Shown here piece after piece: positions 1-15,108 of a stretch of DNA of 64,000 bases (position 1 is its first letter; each line of letters begins with the position of its first letter). The DNA is from a bacterium. Its GTDB lineage: Bacteria; Patescibacteriota; JABMPQ01; JAUVWW01. The stretch is from contig JAUVWW010000001.1 of assembly GCA_030603885.1 (NCBI GenBank), forward strand, positions 2,680-66,679, given 5' to 3'. The notes under the pieces are model-generated. The model was not told where the DNA came from and ran no database searches. It was given only the letters and a program-made list of their open reading frames with translations. The position numbers and the translations under genes are program-made.

Positions 1-1092
1 AAACAGAAATCAGCCAAGCCCAAAGCTTGGTTTTTAGATTTTCATCCGTTTAGAGGAATAACAACCATGGAGAAGATTCTTTTAACTAGAAACCTAGCTG
101 TCATGGTTAAAGCGGGAGTTTCTCTTTCTGAAGCAATTGATATTTTAGCTCAAGATACTAAAAATTCTATTCTTAAAGAGGTGTTATCTAAAACTAAATT
201 AGATCTAGATCAGGGTTTACCTTTGTCCCATGCTTTTGCATCCTATCCTAGATTTTTTTCTAAGGTGTTTTTGGGCTTTATTAAAACAGGAGAAGCTGGA
301 GGAACCCTAGATCGTTCGTTCATGTATCTGTCTAGGCAACTTAAAAAGGAATATAATTTGACCTCCAAGATTAAAGGAGCTCTAACCTATCCTGTAATAT
401 TACTTATTACGGCTTTGGCTGTAGTTATTTTTATTGTCAGTTTTGTTTTACCTAAACTAGCCTCAGTGTTTTTTAGAACTGGGGTGGAGATTCCTTGGTT
501 TACTAGGATAATTCTTAAGGTAAGTGCTATTTTAGGTGCTCATCCTCTCTTAAGCATTGTCTATTTAGGCATACTGGCAGCTTTGGTGACTTACTTTATT
601 CGAACAAGGAAAGGTAGGAATACCTTAAGAGTTATTGCTTCAAAAGTTCCAAGAATAGCTGATCTTCTTAAGAAAATTGACATTATGAGATTTTCTCGAA
701 CTTTTAGTTGGCTCCTAAAAAGCGGCATGCCTATTTTGGAAGCTTTGGATATTGCATCAAGTTCTGTAGAAAGCGTTGCTTACAAGAAAGCTATTTTAGG
801 TTTTAAAGAAAAGATAAAAAAGGGCATGACTTTGAGTATTGTCTTAGGAGACGAGCCTAAACTTTTTCCTGGGCTCATAGTCAGTATAATAAGGGTAGGA
901 GAGAAGACTGGCACTCATGAGCAAGCCCTTCTTCAGGTAGCTAAATTTTATGAAGAGGAAACAAGCGTCGTCTTAGAGAATCTACTAACCTTGATTGAGC
1001 CTATTCTTTTGATGTTGATGGGACTTTTTGTCGCTGGGATAGCTCTTTCTATTGTGGTACCTATTTATCAGCTAGTCACAATCATTGGGTAA
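1..1092 (+). CDS. pilC: Type IV pilus assembly protein PilC / GspF-family platform protein (5'-partial, runs off window start)
   Basis: Reading frame is open from nt 1 with no stop before the listed ATG at 67. Multi-TM protein with GspF/T2SSF-type repeat (LSEAIDILAQD ... MPILEALDIASSSVESV). Sits directly upstream of pilin genes. Confidence 0.8.
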   Translation, partial: KQKSAKPKAWFLDFHPFRGITTMEKILLTRNLAVMVKAGVSLSEAIDILAQDTKNSILKEVLSKTKLDLDQGLPLSHAFASYPRFFSKVFLGFIKTGEAGGTLDRSFMYLSRQLKKEYNLTSKIKGALTYPVILLITALAVVIFIVSFVLPKLASVFFRTGVEIPWFTRIILKVSAILGAHPLLSIVYLGILAALVTYFIRTRKGRNTLRVIASKVPRIADLLKKIDIMRFSRTFSWLLKSGMPILEALDIASSSVESVAYKKAILGFKEKIKKGMTLSIVLGDEPKLFPGLIVSIIRVGEKTGTHEQALLQVAKFYEEETSVVLENLLTLIEPILLMLMGLFVAGIALSIVVPIYQLVTIIG

Positions 1093-1140: not shown

Positions 1141-1617
1141 ATGAATTCAAAAGGTTTTACTCTCATTGAAACCCTCATTGTCATAACCATCATTGGTATT
1201 CTGGCTGTGGTTGGTTTTATTTCTTATACTTCTTTTCAACGTTCAATTGAGATAGAATCTGTGGCAAGGCAGACAGTAGATACTTTAAGAGAAGCTCAAA
1301 GCAAAACTATGGCTGGAGAGGAGCTATCTCAGTGGGGAGTCCATTTTGAAACAGATAAGTTTGTTTTGTTTTATGGATCAAGCTACGATCCTAACGAATT
1401 AAAGAATCAGGTAAATGGATTGTCTTCCGCGGTCAAGATAAGTAATATTACTTTGAGTGGGGGAGGGAGTGATGTTGTTTTTGATAAGCTAGAAGGAACT
1501 ACTTCAAACTTTGGTACAGGAGCTAATGATGCAGCTTTGCGAGTAGAATTGGCGACTCAATCTTCTACTTATAAAACAATCACTATTACCCAAGTAGGAA
1601 AGATAAATATAGAATAA
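1141..1617 (+). CDS. Type IV pilin (prepilin-type N-terminal cleavage/methylation domain)
   Basis: N-terminus MNSKGFTLIETLIVITIIGILAVVGF matches the class III signal G|FTLIE with Glu at +5, followed by a hydrophobic helix. Size 158 aa. Confidence 0.8.
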   Translation: MNSKGFTLIETLIVITIIGILAVVGFISYTSFQRSIEIESVARQTVDTLREAQSKTMAGEELSQWGVHFETDKFVLFYGSSYDPNELKNQVNGLSSAVKISNITLSGGGSDVVFDKLEGTTSNFGTGANDAALRVELATQSSTYKTITITQVGKINIE

Positions 1618-1653: not shown

Positions 1654-3576
1654 ATGCCTAAACGCTTAAATGTTAAAACAAAGAAAGGGCAAATAACTAT
1701 AGAATTACTTATAGCCTTGATTGTGGGAGGCTTAATTTTGCTTACCGCAGGCCAGCTTATTTTTGTTTCTTTGCAATCGAGCAGAGCAGGCGATAAACAG
1801 AACATTGCTTTAGGTTTAGCTCAGGAAGGTCAAGCAGCAGTTCGAGCCATAAAAGATGAGGATTGGAATAATATTTATAACTTGACCAAAGGTAGTTCTT
1901 ATCATCCAACACACAACGGAGGAGGTTGGAGCTTATCTGCTGGCACAGACGAGCCGATTTCTGGATATACTCGTTCTATAGTAATAGATAATGTCCAGAG
2001 AGACGAGTCTGGAAACATAGTTGAGTCTGGAGGTACTGATGATCCCTCTACTCAGAAAGTGGCAGTAACTGTGACTGCCAATGATATGAGAGATATAGTC
2101 TTAGTTGAATATATCACCTTTTGGAGAAATGAGATCTGGACTCAGACTGATTGGTCAGGAGGGGATGGACAGACTATTTGGTTAGACGATACCAAATATG
2201 ATAGCGATGATAATAATGTAGAGGTCAATGATCCACCCGGTGATCTTAAATTGGCTCCTGGTGGAACTTGGGCTAATGCTTGTATTAGATCAGAAACTAA
2301 ATTTCCTTCAGCTGGGCTCTCTAATGATGTCTTTGTTGTTGGTAACTATGCTTATTTAACAGTGAATGTCAATGTGGCTGGACTGCAGATCTTTGATGTT
2401 TCTGATTCGCAAAATCCATTCCATGTAGGTAGTAAAAATCTGGGCAATTTTGGAACAGGTGTAGAAGTTTCAGGAAATTATGCCTTTTTAAGCGTTAACC
2501 AATATGACGAAGGATTCCAGGTGTTGGATGTCTCCGATCCTTATCATCCAGAAGTAAAAGCAAGAGTAGATATCGGCAGTAGAGGAAATGATATCTATGT
2601 TTCTGGGAATTATGCCTATTTAGCTGTAGATAGTACTACCAAAGGATTTCAAATTTGGAATGTTTCTAATCCTGAAAGTCCGATTTTAGAATCAGAAGTC
2701 GATTTAGATGGCTTTTCTGCAAATGGAGTTTTTGTCTTGGGTAGTTATGCTTATGTGGCTTGTAGTAAAGCAAATGAAGGACTAAAGATTTATGATGTTT
2801 CTAATCCTTCGAGTCCTGAGCTGAAATCCACTACTGATCTTGGAAAGTCTGCCAATTATGCCTTTGTGGCTGGGGATTATGCCTTTTTAGCTATAGACTC
2901 ACAAAGCGAAGGTTTAAAGATTTATGACTTCTTTATTCCTGAAAGTCCTGTACTTAAATACACTATTGGTGTTGATGGAAAGGGCAATGATACCTTTGTT
3001 GATGAACATTATCTGTTTGTAGCCATTGATAATAATCCTTACGGAGTAAAGATATTTGATATTTCTGGTCTGCCCGACTCGCCACCTGAAGAATTAGCCA
3101 CGGTTGATATTGGAGCTGCTGCCACAGGAGTTCATGTTCACAATAATATTCTTTATATCTCTTCTAAAGAGCCAACCAAATCATTTAAGATTGTCACTCA
3201 AGGTGGATGTGAGGAGGGGGAGCCAAATTATAAACTTTCTGGTTATCTAATTTCTTCTGCTTTTAACTCTGGATCTTTTAGTAGATTTAACTCCATTTCT
3301 TGGTTAGAGACTATACCTACTGAAGCAGAAAATATTAAATTCCAGATAAAAACTGCTTCTGATGTGGGAGGCTCACCAAGTGAGTGGTCTTTAACTTGGT
3401 CTGGACCAGAAGGAGAAGACGGTGATGAGACAGATTATTTTGAGGCAGCCTCAGGTGAGACCATTCATTTAGATCATTGGGGGGATCAGTGGATAAAATA
3501 TAAAGTTATTCTGACTGGTAATGGAAACAATACACCAATACTCCACGAGGTAGCTATTAATTTTACTATTTATTAA
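1654..3576 (+). CDS. Large pilin-like protein: prepilin-type N-terminus fused to a seven-blade LVIVD-repeat beta-propeller; candidate pilus-associated adhesin
   Basis: N-terminus KKGQITIELLIALIVGGLILL (G|QITIE, Glu at +5). Seven repeats of the form Y-A-[YF]-L-[AST]-V-x(5-7)-G-[LF]-[QK]-I-[FWY]-[DN]-V-S-[DN] (e.g. YAYLTVNVNVAGLQIFDVSD, YAFLSVNQYDEGFQVLDVSD, YAYLAVDSTTKGFQIWNVSN), characteristic of LVIVD repeats. Confidence 0.6.
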   Translation: MPKRLNVKTKKGQITIELLIALIVGGLILLTAGQLIFVSLQSSRAGDKQNIALGLAQEGQAAVRAIKDEDWNNIYNLTKGSSYHPTHNGGGWSLSAGTDEPISGYTRSIVIDNVQRDESGNIVESGGTDDPSTQKVAVTVTANDMRDIVLVEYITFWRNEIWTQTDWSGGDGQTIWLDDTKYDSDDNNVEVNDPPGDLKLAPGGTWANACIRSETKFPSAGLSNDVFVVGNYAYLTVNVNVAGLQIFDVSDSQNPFHVGSKNLGNFGTGVEVSGNYAFLSVNQYDEGFQVLDVSDPYHPEVKARVDIGSRGNDIYVSGNYAYLAVDSTTKGFQIWNVSNPESPILESEVDLDGFSANGVFVLGSYAYVACSKANEGLKIYDVSNPSSPELKSTTDLGKSANYAFVAGDYAFLAIDSQSEGLKIYDFFIPESPVLKYTIGVDGKGNDTFVDEHYLFVAIDNNPYGVKIFDISGLPDSPPEELATVDIGAAATGVHVHNNILYISSKEPTKSFKIVTQGGCEEGEPNYKLSGYLISSAFNSGSFSRFNSISWLETIPTEAENIKFQIKTASDVGGSPSEWSLTWSGPEGEDGDETDYFEAASGETIHLDHWGDQWIKYKVILTGNGNNTPILHEVAINFTIY

Positions 3577-4086
3577 ATGAAAAAATTAACTAAGACAAAG
3601 GGTTTTACCCTCATTGAGCTCCTCATTTATATTGCTATTCTCGTCTTTGTTTTAGTCCTTGTCTCTGGAATGATAGTAATCACTTTGCATACCCGGGATC
3701 GTATAAAAGTTACCACAGAAGTTCAGCAGAATTTGATATTCTCCATCGAGAAAATAGCTTATGCTACGAGAAAAGCTTTAGATGTAAATTTACCAGATGA
3801 TAATTCTTCTGGTTCTACTTTAAGTCTAGCCATGGCAGATGCGGATGTTAATCCTACGGTCTTTAGTGTCTCGGATGGGGTTCTCCAAATAAAAGAAGGA
3901 ACGAGTGATGTTCAAGATCTAACTACAGACAAAGTTACAGTTTCATCTATCATCTTTTATCAAGTCAACAACACAGGGGCAAAACCAACAGTTCAGATTA
4001 GCTTAGCCATTGACTACAATGCCGGAGGAAATCCTTATCTTCAAGCCTCGTCCTCCAGGCAGACAACAATATCATTGAGACAATGA
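3577..4086 (+). CDS. Prepilin-type pseudopilin / minor pilin
   Basis: N-terminus MKKLTKTKGFTLIELLIYIAILVFVLVLV (G|FTLIE motif plus TM helix). Confidence 0.7.
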   Translation: MKKLTKTKGFTLIELLIYIAILVFVLVLVSGMIVITLHTRDRIKVTTEVQQNLIFSIEKIAYATRKALDVNLPDDNSSGSTLSLAMADADVNPTVFSVSDGVLQIKEGTSDVQDLTTDKVTVSSIIFYQVNNTGAKPTVQISLAIDYNAGGNPYLQASSSRQTTISLRQ

Positions 4087-4517
4087 AAAGTTACAAGTTA
4101 CAAGTTACAAATTACAAATTACAGTGGGGTATCGCTGCTCTTCCTGCTATTTTAGCTATCTCAGCAATAATCTTAATTATTGGTCTGGCTATTGCTTTTT
4201 CTGGAAGAGTGGAAAGTAGTATTTCAGCCAGTCACAGAGATTCTGGTATGGCTTTTCATGTTGCTGAAGCAGGAATTCATGACGCTGAAATAAAAATTGT
4301 AAGAAACCCAGATTTTGAAGACCTGGTAGGCTATACATTGACTGTTGGTGATGGAACTACTACAATAACGGTGGATAAAGACGTACCCTCTTCAGGAAAA
4401 ACTACTATTATATCCCAAGGAGAAGTTAAAAACATAAAACGCAAGATAAGAGTAATTGTAGATGTAGATCCTCAAGGGAAGGTGACTTTGTATTCTTGGG
4501 AAGAAATGACTGATTAG
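4083..4517 (+). CDS. Minor pilin-like protein (PilX-like N-terminal domain)
   Basis: Hydrophobic N-terminal helix AALPAILAISAIILIIGLAIAF, then SxxxSxxHRDSGMAFHVAEAG resembling PilX_N. Overlaps the upstream stop (ATGA). Start region carries a heptanucleotide tandem repeat. Confidence 0.5.
   Translation: MKSYKLQVTNYKLQWGIAALPAILAISAIILIIGLAIAFSGRVESSISASHRDSGMAFHVAEAGIHDAEIKIVRNPDFEDLVGYTLTVGDGTTTITVDKDVPSSGKTTIISQGEVKNIKRKIRVIVDVDPQGKVTLYSWEEMTD
4089..4123 (+). repeat. Tandem heptanucleotide repeat (AGTTACA)x3 + (AATTACA)x2 inside the first 14 codons of the minor pilin gene
   Basis: Sequence agttaca agttaca agttaca aattaca aattaca read directly. The 7-nt unit is not a multiple of 3. Confidence 0.85.
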
Positions 4518-4586: not shown

Positions 4587-6083
4587 ATGAGAGTATTCGA
4601 TCTACTAATTCCAAAAGAACGAATATTTGGTCTTGAAATCCAAGAAAGCAGGCTTAGAGCAGTACTTTTGCATTCTGTAAGACAGAAGGTAGTTTTGATC
4701 TCTTCAGGCGAAATAAGACTAAAAAAAGACACTATCATTAAGGGGAAAGTAAAAGATAAAAAAGCATTGATTTTAGCTTTAAGAAAATTGTTTAGGGCAG
4801 CAAAACCCTCTATAAAAACCCCTTATTGTATAGTCTCTCTTCCAGAATCTCTAGTCTTTACTCAAACTTTCCAGTTTCCACCTCTACCCCAAGAACAAAT
4901 CACACAGGCTATTAAATCTGACGTTTCTTTATTTCCCTATCCGCTAGATAAAGCTTACATGGATTGGCAAGAGGTAAAAGCACCAAATATTGAGGGTAAA
5001 ATAGAGTTGCTCATAGCCCAAGGCCCAAAAAATAAAATCGATCCTTATCTTGAAGCCCTAGATGAAGCTGGGTTAATACCCATAGCTTTTGAAATGCCTT
5101 CTATTAGTCTTTCTCGTATCGTGGACAAACCTCAAAAAGGAGCTTCTCTAGGTATTTATTTAACCCAAGATGGCATTGTTAGTTTGGTTTTTAAAGAAGG
5201 TGATCTGAGATTTGGTCGTTTTTTGAGCTTTAAAGAAGAAATACCTAAGGTAGAAAAAATAGATATCCAATCAGATGAGGTTAGAAAAACTTTAGTAAAT
5301 GAAATTAGAAGAGTTATCACTTTTTATCAATCCCAAAGGAAAGTCAAGGTCTCTTTCTCTTCTATTTTTATTTGTGGAGAGAAAGGCAAAATTTCTAAAC
5401 TAGCCAAGTATGTAACTGGTCAGCTTCAGATAAAAACATCTCAGGCCCAAGCTTTTATTAATATTAAAAAAATAGATTTTATTAAAGAGGATTCCTCTTG
5501 GCTGCCAGTCGTAGGATGTGCTCTTAGAGGTCTTGTTTCTCGCAAAGAGGATAATTTTATTAGTCTTTTGCCCGTAGGTACTGAAGAGGCTTACGAGACT
5601 AAGAAAAGGGTAGCCTTTGCTTCACTTTGGGGCAATATTATTACCACTCTGACAGTGGTTTTGGTAATCATCTTTGTTAGTATGTGGTTTTTACTTCATT
5701 ATCTCGTTCAGACTACAGACGAACAGTTGAATTTGCGTGCTCAAATTCCTATCCCTGAAGAAACATCAAGGCTAGAGACAGAGGCTTTAGAATTTAATGA
5801 AAGAATAGAGATAATGAAGGAAATACAAAAAGATATTTTACCTTTCTCGCCTATATTGGCTGAGATTAAAAATCTTATTCCAGAGGGTATAACTTTGAAT
5901 GGCCTTAATATTTTCTCTAAAGAGGCCGAGGTGATACTTCAAGGTAAGGCAGACACAAGAAAGCATCTTATTGCTTTAAAAGATAATCTTGAATCTTCTT
6001 TATTGTTTAAGAGTATAAACATGCCTCTGGCTAGCATAGAAAAGAAAGAAAACATTGAATTCAACATTTCTTTTAGTTTTTAA
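4587..6083 (+). CDS. pilMN: Type IV pilus assembly PilM-PilN fusion protein
   Basis: N-terminal ~330 aa is actin-like PilM (IFGLEIQESRLRAVLL...). An internal TM helix (IITTLTVVLVIIFVSMWFLLHYL) is followed by a PilN-like periplasmic region. Lies between pilin genes and pilO. Confidence 0.65.
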   Translation: MRVFDLLIPKERIFGLEIQESRLRAVLLHSVRQKVVLISSGEIRLKKDTIIKGKVKDKKALILALRKLFRAAKPSIKTPYCIVSLPESLVFTQTFQFPPLPQEQITQAIKSDVSLFPYPLDKAYMDWQEVKAPNIEGKIELLIAQGPKNKIDPYLEALDEAGLIPIAFEMPSISLSRIVDKPQKGASLGIYLTQDGIVSLVFKEGDLRFGRFLSFKEEIPKVEKIDIQSDEVRKTLVNEIRRVITFYQSQRKVKVSFSSIFICGEKGKISKLAKYVTGQLQIKTSQAQAFINIKKIDFIKEDSSWLPVVGCALRGLVSRKEDNFISLLPVGTEEAYETKKRVAFASLWGNIITTLTVVLVIIFVSMWFLLHYLVQTTDEQLNLRAQIPIPEETSRLETEALEFNERIEIMKEIQKDILPFSPILAEIKNLIPEGITLNGLNIFSKEAEVILQGKADTRKHLIALKDNLESSLLFKSINMPLASIEKKENIEFNISFSF

Positions 6084-6087
6084 AAAG

Positions 6088-6660
6088 ATGCCTCACACAA
6101 CAGGTGAAATAAAGGTTTTAGAATTTGAAAAAGGTCGAGGTCGAAAGAAAATAATAAGGACAGTTATAGGGACTGTGGCTGTGCTTATTTTAGGAATAGT
6201 AGCTATTTCTTTTACAGCAAGACAGATTGTTTTAGCCTCAAAAACTTTGCAGGAAAAAAGAAGCCTACTTTATGTCTGGGAAAAGAGAGATGAGACCTTA
6301 ACTTCTTTAAAAGAAGACTTTAAAAAGATAGAAGAAGATCTTCCCCAGGTTAAAAAAGCCCTACCTAAAGAAGAAGAAATAATAGATTTTATAGCTGCTT
6401 TAGAAAATGTGGCATTAAGTGCAGGAATTGAGCAGACCATCCATTTCGAACCAAAAACAAAAGATAAAGCTGGAGCTTATCCTATTATTGTTTGCAAAGT
6501 CGATCTTGGAGGAAATTTAGATTCAACCATTAGATATCTATCTGAGGTGGAAGGCTTGGTTTATTTTGTTAAATTTAATAATTTAGATATGATAGGAGAA
6601 GAAAATATACAGAAAAGCTCTGAGGCAAAACTTCTGTCAGAGATTTATATTAAAGAATAG
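6088..6660 (+). CDS. pilO: Type IV pilus assembly protein PilO-like (single-pass membrane, coiled-coil)
   Basis: Probable start at the second Met (ATG 6088), just after the pilMN stop at 6081-6083. Single TM (VIGTVAVLILGIVAISF), then coiled-coil and a C-terminal alpha/beta region. Operon context. Confidence 0.5.
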   Translation: MPHTTGEIKVLEFEKGRGRKKIIRTVIGTVAVLILGIVAISFTARQIVLASKTLQEKRSLLYVWEKRDETLTSLKEDFKKIEEDLPQVKKALPKEEEIIDFIAALENVALSAGIEQTIHFEPKTKDKAGAYPIIVCKVDLGGNLDSTIRYLSEVEGLVYFVKFNNLDMIGEENIQKSSEAKLLSEIYIKE

Positions 6661-6671
6661 CAAAGAAAACC

Positions 6672-6884
6672 ATGAGAATTCTTGGCTCTAAATATACTTA
6701 TACTATTATTAGTAGTCTGCTGATACTGATTTTAGTGATCATTTTAGTTATCTCAACAAGATTCTTATATCAGGCCACACAAAGTGCTTTTCAGATAGAT
6801 CCTAGTTTGATTGAAGCTAAGACAATTAAGTTTGATTTAGAAGGATATGAGCAAGTTTTACCAAAAATAAAATCTACTAATTAA
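6672..6884 (+). CDS. Small single-TM protein, hypothetical (possible pilus assembly accessory)
   Basis: 70-aa ORF with TM helix IISSLLILILVIILVI immediately after pilO. Confidence 0.3.
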   Translation: MRILGSKYTYTIISSLLILILVIILVISTRFLYQATQSAFQIDPSLIEAKTIKFDLEGYEQVLPKIKSTN

Positions 6885-6925
6885 GAGGGATATTAGGGGA
6901 ATCCTTAATATCCCTTAATAATTTC

Positions 6926-7087
6926 ATGGGAGAATTTATCCAAGAGGAAGCAAAAAAAAACAAGTTCCGGATTGGAAGGAAAATAGCTGGTTCCCTGGCT
7001 GGATTTATAGCTGGTTTTATTGCTGGGGCCATAGCAGCATCTCTCATTACCTATCTGGTAGTGATGAGATATTGCGTATTGGGATAG
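6926..7087 (+). CDS. Small membrane ORF (53 aa) not in the supplied ORF track
   Basis: ATG 6926 to TAG 7085-7087. MGEFIQEEAKKNKFRIGRKIAGSLAGFIAGFIAGAIAASLITYLVVMRYCVLG with a GxxxG-like small-residue TM helix. Confidence 0.3.
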   Translation: MGEFIQEEAKKNKFRIGRKIAGSLAGFIAGFIAGAIAASLITYLVVMRYCVLG

Positions 7088-7141
7088 AAGTTATTAGACG
7101 CAAGGTAGATTCCATTGATAAATAAGGAAGTCTATTTGGCG

Positions 7142-7170
7142 TTGTAAATATTTATTTAGTATGCTATAAT
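7142..7170 (+). promoter_or_regulatory. Sigma-70-type promoter (TTGTAA-N17-TATAAT) for the 7267 gene
   Basis: ttgtaa (7142-7147), 17-nt spacer, tataat (7165-7170), about 95 nt upstream of the start codon. Confidence 0.5.
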
Positions 7171-7266
7171 AAATAAGAAGAAAGCCTTTAATAAAGTCCG
7201 TAAATAATTTTCTGCTTCGAGTTAGTCGGAATAGAAAGGAATTTAAAGAGTCTACGGACAAAAATC

Positions 7267-8592
7267 ATGTCTAAACAGAAATACAAAAGAGCACTAATTT
7301 TTGCTCTTATCATCAGTATGGCTCTATTTTTGGGCTTGCCATCCAAAACCCAAGCTCTCTTTGATATGTGGGACACTTATTTTTTCAGAAATGACATTGT
7401 CATTCAGGGAGCCATCTATCCTGTAGGACCTATTATCCATGGAGTTCCTGGTGGAATGCCAATAGTTGTTGGAGACCATTTTGAAGTACATGGAGAAATT
7501 TCTCGTCCTTTTGGGCCAGTCATAATTAATGATAGCCTCCTAGTAAAAGATTGGTCTGTCTTTGAAGGAGATATCGATTTTAAAGAAGGGATAACAGTTG
7601 ATTTTACTAGGGTTAATGTTTTGGGACTGGCTCAAGGAGGTCTAGATACTAGTGCTAATTATGTTTGGACAGGAACCCATACCTTTAATCAACCTATTGC
7701 TGTCTCGGGTGTAGCTGGTGGTACTTGGCAGGGTAATGCTATTGCTGAAGCCTACGGAGGTACCGACCAGACAACGTATACCACAGGGGATCTACTTTAT
7801 GCCTCAGGGGTTAATACCTTAGCCAAATTAGGGATTGGCTTGGCAGGAGAAGTGTTACAGGTCTCTGGAGGTGTACCTACTTGGCAAACAATTGGTACAG
7901 TGCCTGCTCCAGGAACTCAGGGTGCAATCCTCTATGATAATGGTTCAAATTGGGTAGCTTTAGGCCCAGGAACCTCAGGTCAATTTCTTCAAACCCAAGG
8001 AGCTGGAGCTAATCCTGTTTGGGCAACCGCCGGAGGTGCAGGAGATATTACAGCGGTAGGTGATGTGGCCTCAGGAGATGCATTTACAGAAACTGCTGGT
8101 AATGACGGTAATTCCTTATGGTTTGAAGGATCAACCGCGGATGCCAATGAGATTAAATTAACCGCTCAAGATCCAGGAGCAGATTATACTATTACATTAC
8201 CAGCGCAATCGGGTACTGTTGCCTTAACTTCTGATATAACTGACTATCACTATTTAGGGGGAGGGGATACTAATTTTTCCTCTTGGGTAACTATTAATAG
8301 GACAGTTTATAATGCTGACGATTTTCCAAATAGGACCTTCTCCTATGCCGTAGTTTATACGTCGGCCAGTGCAGGTCTTGTTGCAGATGTAAGATTGTAT
8401 GATTTCACTAATAGTTCAGTAATTTCAGGATCTACTATTTCTGGTATGACAGGATCTGGACCAACCAAGTATAGCTCTGGAAGCCTTACCATGCCTAGTG
8501 GAGAGATAATAATGGAATTGCAGCTGCAACGAGCTGGTTCAGGTTCAGCAAAATCCTTTATACAAGGTGCGAGGATAAGGGCTGTTAGATAA
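7267..8592 (+). CDS. Secreted Gly/Thr/Ala-rich protein, hypothetical (surface or pilus-associated?)
   Basis: Sec signal peptide (ALIFALIISMALFLGLPSKTQA). Low-complexity G/T/S/A-rich mature region. Directly downstream of the pilus cluster. Confidence 0.5.
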   Translation: MSKQKYKRALIFALIISMALFLGLPSKTQALFDMWDTYFFRNDIVIQGAIYPVGPIIHGVPGGMPIVVGDHFEVHGEISRPFGPVIINDSLLVKDWSVFEGDIDFKEGITVDFTRVNVLGLAQGGLDTSANYVWTGTHTFNQPIAVSGVAGGTWQGNAIAEAYGGTDQTTYTTGDLLYASGVNTLAKLGIGLAGEVLQVSGGVPTWQTIGTVPAPGTQGAILYDNGSNWVALGPGTSGQFLQTQGAGANPVWATAGGAGDITAVGDVASGDAFTETAGNDGNSLWFEGSTADANEIKLTAQDPGADYTITLPAQSGTVALTSDITDYHYLGGGDTNFSSWVTINRTVYNADDFPNRTFSYAVVYTSASAGLVADVRLYDFTNSSVISGSTISGMTGSGPTKYSSGSLTMPSGEIIMELQLQRAGSGSAKSFIQGARIRAVR

Positions 8593-11967: not shown

Positions 11968-13014
11968 ATGTCTCCAAAAACCATCAAATCCATCATCTTT
12001 GGCGTCTTGACTTTGGGCGCTTGTTTGCTCTTTTGGTACTTTCTCCATGCTCTTTTTTATGCCGAATCTTCTATCCTTAATAATCTAATCTGGACGCTTC
12101 TGTTCTTTTTTATCTTTGTTGTGTTATCTGGTTTAACTTGTTTTTTAATAGATTCGAAAGCTATTGCCTTTCCACTTCTTACACTTTGTACTTTGTCTTT
12201 TTTCCTATTCTTTGGTTTCAAGATAGGCTATCTTATTGGTATTATTCTTTTCCTCATTGCTCTCTTTGCTGGTTATCTTAGTATTAATAGTGAAAAGAGA
12301 GTAAGAATACGTGTTTCTTTAAGGAAAAGTCTTGGCTATGGTCTTCCTCTTGTTTTGACCTTCTCTATCATCATGATCTGTATAGCCTATTATTTTGCTC
12401 CAGCCATTCAGGCTCAGGCAAGAGAAATAACTATTCCTAAACAGATGTTTGATGCTGCTGTGGCTCCGGCAGAAGGTGTGATCTCTGGTCTTGTTCCTGG
12501 ATTTAAAAAAAGTATGACAGTGGACGAGTTTACCTTTTTAATGACACTCTCTACTTTAGAGAAACAGGAAGAATTTGAACTTCCTCCTGAAGCTATAGAA
12601 TTCTTAAAAGAAGAAGGTGTAGATATAGCCTCTAAACAAGAAGTGTTTGAAGCCATCAGAGAAAATCCAAAAGTGAAAGAGAAATTTATGGAAATATTCA
12701 AAGAACAAGAAGGAAAAGAAGAAGGTGGTCAGGGATTGTTTGAGGGATTGGGGATAGAAGTTAAAGGAGACGAGCCATTCTTAGATGCCATATACAAAGC
12801 AGCTAATCAAAAACTAAACGAAGTTCTAGGCCCTTATAGAAAATATATTCCTCTAGCCGCTAGCGTTAGTCTATTTTTTATCTTAAGAATTCTAATGATT
12901 CCTTTTGATTGGTTGGTGATGTCATTTGCTTGGCTATTGTTTGCTTTATTGAAAGCAGTTAAAGTAGTGAGGATTGAGAAAGTGCAGAAGGAAGTGGAAA
13001 CCATTGCCATGTAA
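11968..13014 (+). CDS. Multi-pass membrane protein, hypothetical, inserted between dnaK and dnaJ
   Basis: 348 aa. 4-5 N-terminal TM helices, an acidic coiled region and a C-terminal TM. No recognisable family. Confidence 0.5.
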   Translation: MSPKTIKSIIFGVLTLGACLLFWYFLHALFYAESSILNNLIWTLLFFFIFVVLSGLTCFLIDSKAIAFPLLTLCTLSFFLFFGFKIGYLIGIILFLIALFAGYLSINSEKRVRIRVSLRKSLGYGLPLVLTFSIIMICIAYYFAPAIQAQAREITIPKQMFDAAVAPAEGVISGLVPGFKKSMTVDEFTFLMTLSTLEKQEEFELPPEAIEFLKEEGVDIASKQEVFEAIRENPKVKEKFMEIFKEQEGKEEGGQGLFEGLGIEVKGDEPFLDAIYKAANQKLNEVLGPYRKYIPLAASVSLFFILRILMIPFDWLVMSFAWLLFALLKAVKVVRIEKVQKEVETIAM

Positions 13015-15037: not shown

Positions 15038-15108
15038 TGGGTCCATAGGGAATCGAACCCTAGTAGCTAGCTTAAAAGGCTAGTGTTCTACCATTGAACT
15101 ATAGACCC
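15038..15108 (-). tRNA. tRNA-Lys (anticodon UUU)
   Basis: Reverse complement GGGTCTATAGTTCAATGGTAGAACACTAGCCTTTTAAGCTAGCTACTAGGGTTCGATTCCCTATGGACCCA folds as a cloverleaf: 7-bp acceptor, D-arm GTTC/GAAC, anticodon stem CTAGC/GCTAG with loop CTTTTAA, and T-arm TAGGG-TTCGATT-CCCTA. No encoded CCA. Confidence 0.85.

Follow-up and report, generated by a model that had tools for sequence, protein, structure and literature searches.

Modular pilins of type IV pili (T4P) were surveyed by Raynaud et al. 2021 (PNAS; PMC8179133), who counted 1,219 such proteins in 264 architectures and showed PilB of Streptococcus sanguinis, which carries a vWA domain, to be an adhesin. Dataset S1 of that survey lists about 30 proteins with IPR012902-IPR013211 architectures of 1 to 13 repeats; the paper names an example from Candidatus Falkowbacteria with a motif ‘of unknown function’, and N_methyl-LVIVD pilins are only counted. 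Within the Candidate Phyla Radiation (CPR), Grossman et al. (PMC11623550) described a minor pilin of Nanosynbacter lyticus TM7x, PilX2 (T4P-2), whose signal is non-canonical and whose propeller has seven blades of RCC1 repeats. Deletion of PilX2 halved host binding while thin filaments remained, and its authors proposed that it is a tip adhesin; PilX1 of the same organism has an unannotated jelly-roll domain (PMC11623550). PilY1/PilC of Pseudomonas and Neisseria is a seven-bladed propeller found at the T4P tip with four core minor pilins, where it acts as an adhesin or sensor (PMC11623550, PMC8179133). Here we describe a 64,000-nucleotide (nt) stretch of a patescibacterial assembly (GCA_030603885.1, contig JAUVWW010000001.1, positions 2,680 to 66,679, forward strand; hereafter the window, whose own coordinates are used below), in which the open reading frame (ORF) at 1654-3576 encodes a protein of 640 amino acids (aa) that is very probably a type IV minor pilin bearing a seven-bladed LVIVD propeller.

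In the sense of Raynaud et al. 2021 this protein is a modular type IV pilin and, as IPR013211 is the LVIVD repeat, its architecture is the same as that of the IPR012902-IPR013211(n) entries in Dataset S1. It resembles S. sanguinis PilB (vWA) and PilC (lectin) in that an N-terminal pilin module bears a functional module unrelated to the pilus and in being encoded among minor pilins; modular pilins have been proposed to be tip-exposed and adhesive. Unlike those two proteins, in which the vWA or lectin module is attached end-on via a short linker, the propeller appears to be inserted into a second conserved domain, a beta-sandwich. Like TM7x PilX2, it is a CPR minor pilin with a seven-bladed beta-propeller; set against the published description of PilX2, it differs in having LVIVD in place of RCC1 repeats, and the operon slot may differ as well. 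Membership of an RCC1-type family was rejected, with no RCC1 match in Pfam at E<=0.1. An earlier reading of this DNA, made from the letters alone (the sequence-only reading), had suggested comparison with PilY1-type tip proteins. The two share a seven-bladed propeller, which PilY1 displays at the T4P tip, but PilY1 lacks a class III signal and, not being itself a pilin, docks on minor pilins, whereas the propeller described here is a covalent part of a minor pilin. The PilY1/PilC family (IPR008707) was rejected, as it gave no Pfam match and PilY1 lay outside the top 50 Foldseek matches in the PDB. Similar to the core minor pilins PilV, GspI and ComGE, the protein is encoded second after a GspH/FimU-like pilin and has a small alpha-beta module with Glu at position +5, yet classical members of that group are 100-190 aa long and without cargo, in contrast to the large head seen here.

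The sequence-only reading had also called a beta-propeller on a pilin scaffold unusual. This did not hold up, as the family proved to be large and the N_methyl plus LVIVD combination had already been listed by Raynaud et al. 2021. A literature search for LVIVD together with pilin found nothing relevant. Overall, the earlier reading is supported for an architecture that is neither rare nor new in kind, with tip location and adhesion being what we infer. The present analysis adds the size of the family, the identity of the carrier as a PilV/GspI-like pilin in the second slot, the split-sandwich insertion and the exchangeability of the head.

Prepilin signal, pilin module and family size

The gene and the predicted parts of its product are listed below, each with the evidence for it.

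1654-3576, + strand: LVIVD pilin gene (640 aa ORF)
1654..1689, + strand: class III (prepilin) leader MPKRLNVKTKKG, predicted cleavage after Gly12 (sequence; family conservation; solved-pilin alignment)
1690..2127, + strand: predicted pilin module (aa 13-158), alpha1 helix plus antiparallel beta-sheet, PilV/GspI-like (AlphaFold2; profile; weak named matches)
2131..2268, + strand: putative N-terminal part of a split beta-sandwich, or linker (aa ~160-205; conserved W-x-Q-T...G-x-L-x-L motif)
2281..3213, + strand: predicted seven-bladed LVIVD beta-propeller, the inserted head (aa ~210-520; PF08309; AlphaFold2; Foldseek; blade list)
3217..3576, + strand: predicted C-terminal beta-sandwich (aa 522-640) and stop codon (AlphaFold2 of the domain alone; presence in the family)

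The ORF is exactly as first read. Its only available start codon is ATG 1654, an in-frame stop lying upstream at 1636-1638, and the ATG of the next gene (3577) abuts its stop codon. The N-terminus consists of MPKRLNVKTKKG followed by QITIELLIALIVGG, that is, a basic 12-residue leader with Gly at -1 and Glu at +5, then a hydrophobic stretch; the +1 residue of the predicted mature protein is Gln (residue 13, codon 1690-1692). A six-frame regular-expression search for the Gly/Glu+5 prepilin motif gave three matches in the 64 kb, all of which are the N-termini of adjoining genes at 1141, 1654 and 3577.

Conservation was assessed in two alignments, A1 comprising 20 full-length homologues at ~30 % identity, which also served as input for AlphaFold2 (AF2), and A2 comprising the pilin module only from 16 sequences. 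Gly occupied -1 in most aligned homologues in A1, with Ala in a few, whilst Glu+5 (E17) was at least 90 % conserved in A1 and invariant in A2. The N_methyl family PF07963 matched 17 of 21 family members. The A2 profile also aligned in register with solved pilins, its Gly-1, +1 and Glu+5 positions matching those of Geobacter PilA-N (9egp, E=5e-4), and PilA (9laa, 1.5e-3), MshA and others were likewise in register. Aligned to verified pilins, the N-terminus thus carries the G-x4-E pattern and does not look like an ordinary anchor without it, which bears out the class III signal with Glu+5 proposed by the sequence-only reading.

The AF2 model built on A1 (mean predicted local distance difference test score, pLDDT, of 78.5 over the 640-aa protein) predicts a helix at residues 9-68 and an antiparallel sheet at 85-154 in the N-terminal part. 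The best named relatives of this module were PilV, GspI/XpsI and ComGE, all of them weak and far under curated cut-offs; the PilV model matched at E=0.019 with 15.5 bits against a cut-off of 52.2, and orthologues scored ~20 bits or less, short of TIGR02523 and TIGR01707. With minor-pilin genes numbered by slot downstream of pilC, the likeness to PilV, GspI and ComGE fits slot 2 of an H-I-J-K-type order, since the slot-1 pilin matches GspH and ComGD.

No contig encoding the window protein was on record, and a single-protein search for related loci among GTDB representatives found no relative. In an exhaustive profile search with A2, 19,520 representative proteins passed E<=1e-3, of which 5,033 also passed E<=1e-10; at E<=1e-30 there were 595 clusters. 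The match was N-terminal in every hit listed. Word-indexed searches with sub-domain profiles had given short proteins or fragments only, a biased picture that the exhaustive search corrected. Counts of length classes, heads and +1 residues given hereafter refer to the best 150 members from the A2 search, whose lengths were distributed as follows.

Under 320 aa: 40 members
320-560 aa: 17 members
560-720 aa: 71 members
Over 720 aa: 22 members

Among the plain members, P0135 and P0136 (218 aa and 165 aa) occupy the same operon slot as second pilin behind pilB-pilC and share 36-41 % identity with residues 11-158 of the window protein. The pilin module defines a large family in a PilV/GspI-type slot, which is new in this analysis. 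Gln was the commonest +1 residue, present in 74 of the 150, with the canonical Phe in 18; members P0248-P0391 were covered by this observation. A Gln at +1 raises the question of N-terminal methylation versus cyclisation to pyroglutamate.

The LVIVD propeller

The LVIVD family PF08309 matched the protein at E=4.1e-27 (93.7 bits against a Pfam gathering threshold of 20.2), alongside a weaker match to Beta_propel and no other Pfam match. There are seven repeat units of 43-46 aa each, six of them clear and the seventh degenerate (NNILYISSKEPTKSFKIVTQ). AF2 predicts 28 strands at residues 210-515, corresponding to seven blades of four strands with pLDDT of about 90-96, and the best Foldseek matches in the PDB were seven-bladed WD40 propellers, including beta-TrCP (E=1e-12) and WDR61 (template modelling, TM, score of 0.84 on the target). 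The seven LVIVD repeats and the propeller they were said to form are thus confirmed, as far as a confident prediction can do so.

Apparent insertion of the propeller into a beta-sandwich

The sequence-only reading had placed a C-terminal domain of about 150 aa behind the propeller. Such a domain is real, but spans about 120 aa (522-640). It appears as a sandwich at residues 529-639 of the full AF2 model, and modelled alone it reached a pLDDT of 83 and a predicted TM score of 0.76. Amongst large family members it is kept in 88 of 93, comprising 67 of the 71 that are 560-720 aa long and 21 of the 22 that are larger. The stretch between pilin module and propeller is also conserved, with W162, T166, F170, G173 and L200 as conserved columns in A1.

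The propeller is absent from five members of 295-309 aa, which consist of the pilin module, the linker motif and the C-terminal domain. In these the linker motif (W-x-QTT..F..GT...GG-x-V-x-L) reaches the C-terminal domain within a few residues. BLASTP of one of them, P0263 (295 aa), against the window protein gave two collinear segments, with residues 1-162 of P0263 corresponding to 1-165 of the window protein (E=1e-23) and residues 173-293 to 508-637 (E=5e-11). By the spacing of these segments, ~340 residues of the window protein correspond to ~10 in P0263. On the simplest reading the propeller would have entered a loop of a protein that already combined pilin and sandwich, which is geometrically easy as the two ends of a propeller meet. 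The plain succession of pilin, propeller and C-terminal domain assumed at first thus gives way, in light of P0263 and the other propeller-less relatives, to a propeller that appears to sit inside a split beta-sandwich.

The affinities of the sandwich itself are faint. Its best PDB folds, at E=0.06, were the PNGase C-terminal domain, the furin P-domain, CBM32 and viral jelly-rolls, and Pfam gave no match for it, including when the propeller was deleted and the sandwich fused to the linker. The weak signals converge on galactose-binding/CBM32-like folds; F5_F8_type_C was matched at E=0.03 by the propeller-deleted fusion of one homologue, and Foldseek paired the sandwich with the CBM32 of AlyQ at 20-22 % identity. 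Foldseek matches to predicted viral structures were likewise weak (E from 5.5e-4 upward, TM score of at most about 0.6 on the query), and the named ones were mostly phage tail proteins; they included minor tail proteins, a tip attachment protein J and a ‘galactose binding protein’. The sandwich may be a jelly-roll adaptor or an accessory binding domain; we claim no function for it.

Variable heads across the family

At least two LVIVD blades were detected with a crude blade hidden Markov model in 48 of the 93 large members, and a further seven were LVIVD by Pfam, so that at least 55 of the 93 carry this repeat. The other 38 had DUF4082 (three members), Laminin_G_3, Lectin_like, a BNR-type propeller, GH115_C or no annotated domain. 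Members of ~940-1000 aa had 8-11 detectable blades, probably amounting to two propellers. As judged from these domain assignments, the pilin module and sandwich are the constant part of the family and the inserted head is the part that changes.

In genomes with a small slot-2 pilin, enlarged proteins sit in other slots. Locus L004 has a 360-aa slot-3 protein (6654-7736), and L005 has a 294-aa slot-1 pilin (3500-4384) as well as a 583-aa slot-4 protein (5416-7167). This suggests that cargo can ride on different minor pilins in different CPR lineages. We would further propose, tentatively, that the pilin module and split sandwich might form a CPR-wide docking cassette for exchangeable receptor-binding heads, giving a pilus tip that resembles phage receptor-binding proteins and in which the type of head sets the host. 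A shared role as adaptor would be in keeping with the weak likeness that the sandwich bears to phage tail and tip-attachment proteins.

Operon and genomic context

The gene lies in a pilus operon whose other members in the window are as follows.

1..1092, + strand: pilC (T2SSF platform protein), 5' end upstream of the window (PF00482, E=8.8e-57)
1141..1617, + strand: slot-1 minor pilin, 158 aa, GspH/FimU/ComGD-like (PF07963, E=9e-8)
3577..4086, + strand: slot-3 minor pilin, 169 aa (PF07963, E=2e-6; orthologues in loci L001-L005)
4083..4517, + strand: slot-4 protein, 144 aa, putative PilX/GspK-like minor pilin without Glu+5 (position, hydrophobic N-terminus)
4587..6083, + strand: PilM-PilN fusion, 498 aa (PF11104, E=4e-17; PF05137, E=1e-7)
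6055..6660, + strand: PilO, 201 aa (PF04350, E=3.6e-8)
6672..6884, + strand: small single-pass membrane protein, 70 aa, in the slot after pilO (ORF)

The order is thus pilC, the 158-aa pilin, the LVIVD protein, the 169-aa pilin, the 144-aa protein, pilM-pilN, pilO and the 70-aa membrane protein. This gene order is kept in distant CPR genomes; with pilB in front, it recurs on a contig of Candidatus Curtissbacteria (L001) and two other long contigs (L002 and L003). Position in slot 2, after a GspH/ComGD-like pilin and before two minor-pilin-type genes, was common to the window and five related loci (L001-L005). Related loci have pilB immediately before pilC and a major-type pilin after pilO, and a prepilin peptidase (Peptidase_A24) gene was present beside the orthologous operon in L002 and L003.

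Of the cluster described by the sequence-only reading, pilC, two N_methyl pilins, PilM-PilN and PilO were recovered by family matches, whilst the fourth pilin-like protein (4083-4517) had no family match in Pfam or NCBIfam. The latter gene overlaps the slot-3 gene by 4 nt (4083-4086), a homologue occupies the same slot of L001, and its position and hydrophobic N-terminus suggest a pilin. The slot-1 pilin showed sub-threshold NCBIfam matches to GspH and ComGD and has orthologues in the same slot of L001-L005. With a CPR PilC as tblastn query, query residue 64 aligned from window position 70. The fusion has PilM_2 N-terminally and PilN C-terminally; the equivalent slot holds one 529-aa gene in L003 and two called genes (218 + 309 aa) in the otherwise identical L002. 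Proteins of 61-94 aa occupy the post-pilO slot in L002 and L005. DnaK encoded in the window was 71-75 % identical to DnaK of Patescibacteria metagenome-assembled genomes labelled Saccharibacteria, Portnoybacteria and Parcubacteria, which identifies the source organism as a CPR bacterium. The dnaK-anchored loci of the nearest CPR genomes were without the pilus operon.

Probable role at the pilus tip and alternatives

T4P are nearly universal in CPR bacteria, and in the only case open to genetics a minor pilin with a propeller has a part in binding the host. Most CPR/Patescibacteria are uncultivated, those brought into culture live attached to other microorganisms, and their host recognition is largely obscure. 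We consider it likely that the LVIVD protein belongs to the priming or tip complex of the pilus and that its head is an adhesin, because of its operon position, the size of the head, the exchange of heads (including for lectin-type ones) and the TM7x precedent. A prepilin peptidase encoded elsewhere in the genome would cleave after Gly12, and the mature protein would join the three other minor pilins via its hydrophobic alpha1 helix. The complex of four minor pilins would then prime pilus assembly on the PilC/PilMNO platform and, with major pilin added underneath, would stay at the distal tip, where a sandwich-plus-propeller head of roughly 480 aa would be displayed. The head may bind a surface ligand, the most plausible candidates being glycans or proteins on the bacterium that hosts this episymbiotic CPR cell, after which retraction would pull the cells together; exchange of heads between lineages would retune binding specificity. 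A slot-2 pilin family with a variable head is a candidate host-specificity determinant recognisable from sequence in many CPR lineages, and the LVIVD repeat gains a defined biological setting for a ligand search.

Several observations weigh against this reading. The 640-aa protein had no match to PF07963 or TIGR02532 at E<=0.1, so that the N_methyl assignment expected of it held for most homologues and not for the protein itself, and its +1 residue is Gln where the mature form of a type IV pilin usually has Phe or Met; the N_methyl models probably miss this protein and many relatives for this very reason. The AF2 model is of low confidence and poorly defined at residues 158-196, the C-terminal sandwich has no sequence relative and no significant fold match in the PDB, and the split-sandwich geometry of the window protein rests on sequence comparison only. 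To our knowledge, no LVIVD propeller has a demonstrated ligand, and the GspI/PilV-type subunit does not sit at the apex of known tip complexes, so that a head of 480 aa would need accommodating. PilD, PilB, PilT and a major pilin are all missing from the 64-kb window, even though it holds a complete minor-pilin/platform operon, and must be encoded elsewhere in the genome.

The missed N_methyl models and the Gln at +1 would also suit a membrane-anchored surface protein whose helix is neither cleaved nor assembled and whose propeller stands on the cell body and might belong to the assembly platform. We regard this as improbable, given that the family keeps Gly-1 and Glu+5 and a conserved charged Glu is unexpected in a plain anchor. 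Further points against an anchor are the homologues matched by N_methyl, the small plain pilin orthologues in the same slot and the location of the gene among minor-pilin genes with abutting or overlapping frames.

To a similarly low degree we credit a competence (Com-like) or secretion-type pseudopilus in which the head would serve DNA capture or substrate handling and not host adhesion. Such a system would be in keeping with the weak likeness of the four pilins to ComGD/GE/GF and GspH/I, and DNA uptake has been proposed for the pili of reduced-genome CPR bacteria (PMC11623550). Against this, PilM/N/O are typical of type IVa pilus machines and some of the alternative heads in the family are lectin-type. 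Nor do we know of LVIVD or WD40-like propellers that bind DNA. In TM7x, moreover, competence stayed normal in mutants with deletions in the propeller-bearing pilus system (PMC11623550). A catalytic propeller, such as a pilus-delivered enzyme modifying glycans or the cell wall, can be largely discounted: a single Foldseek match to the propeller phosphotriesterase 5hrm and the existence of modular pilins with predicted peptidase modules (PMC8179133) speak for it, but there was no enzyme-family match in Pfam or NCBIfam, the top folds were non-catalytic WD40 scaffolds, and the invariant columns were mostly Gly, Pro, Tyr and Trp, with no catalytic-type residues standing out.

Other features of the window

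Directly downstream of the pilus operon, a 441-aa protein (7267-8592) has a Sec-type signal peptide, is rich in Gly, Thr and Ser, and contains repeated G-x-x-G-x-V/F-L-Q...G...P-x-W motifs, with no match in Pfam or NCBIfam. A 348-aa multi-pass membrane protein (11968-13014) is encoded between dnaK and dnaJ and has homologues at the same position in the CPR relatives L007-L009 and L014; this gene seems to be an insertion into the hrcA-grpE-dnaK-dnaJ operon that is conserved in, and specific to, CPR bacteria. Nearly all ORFs of at least 120 aa are encoded on the + strand, with the few exceptions lying inside longer + strand ORFs, and GC skew computed in 2-kb bins stays positive throughout the 64 kb. 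The sole Rfam match in the 64 kb is a tRNA at 15038-15108 on the - strand.

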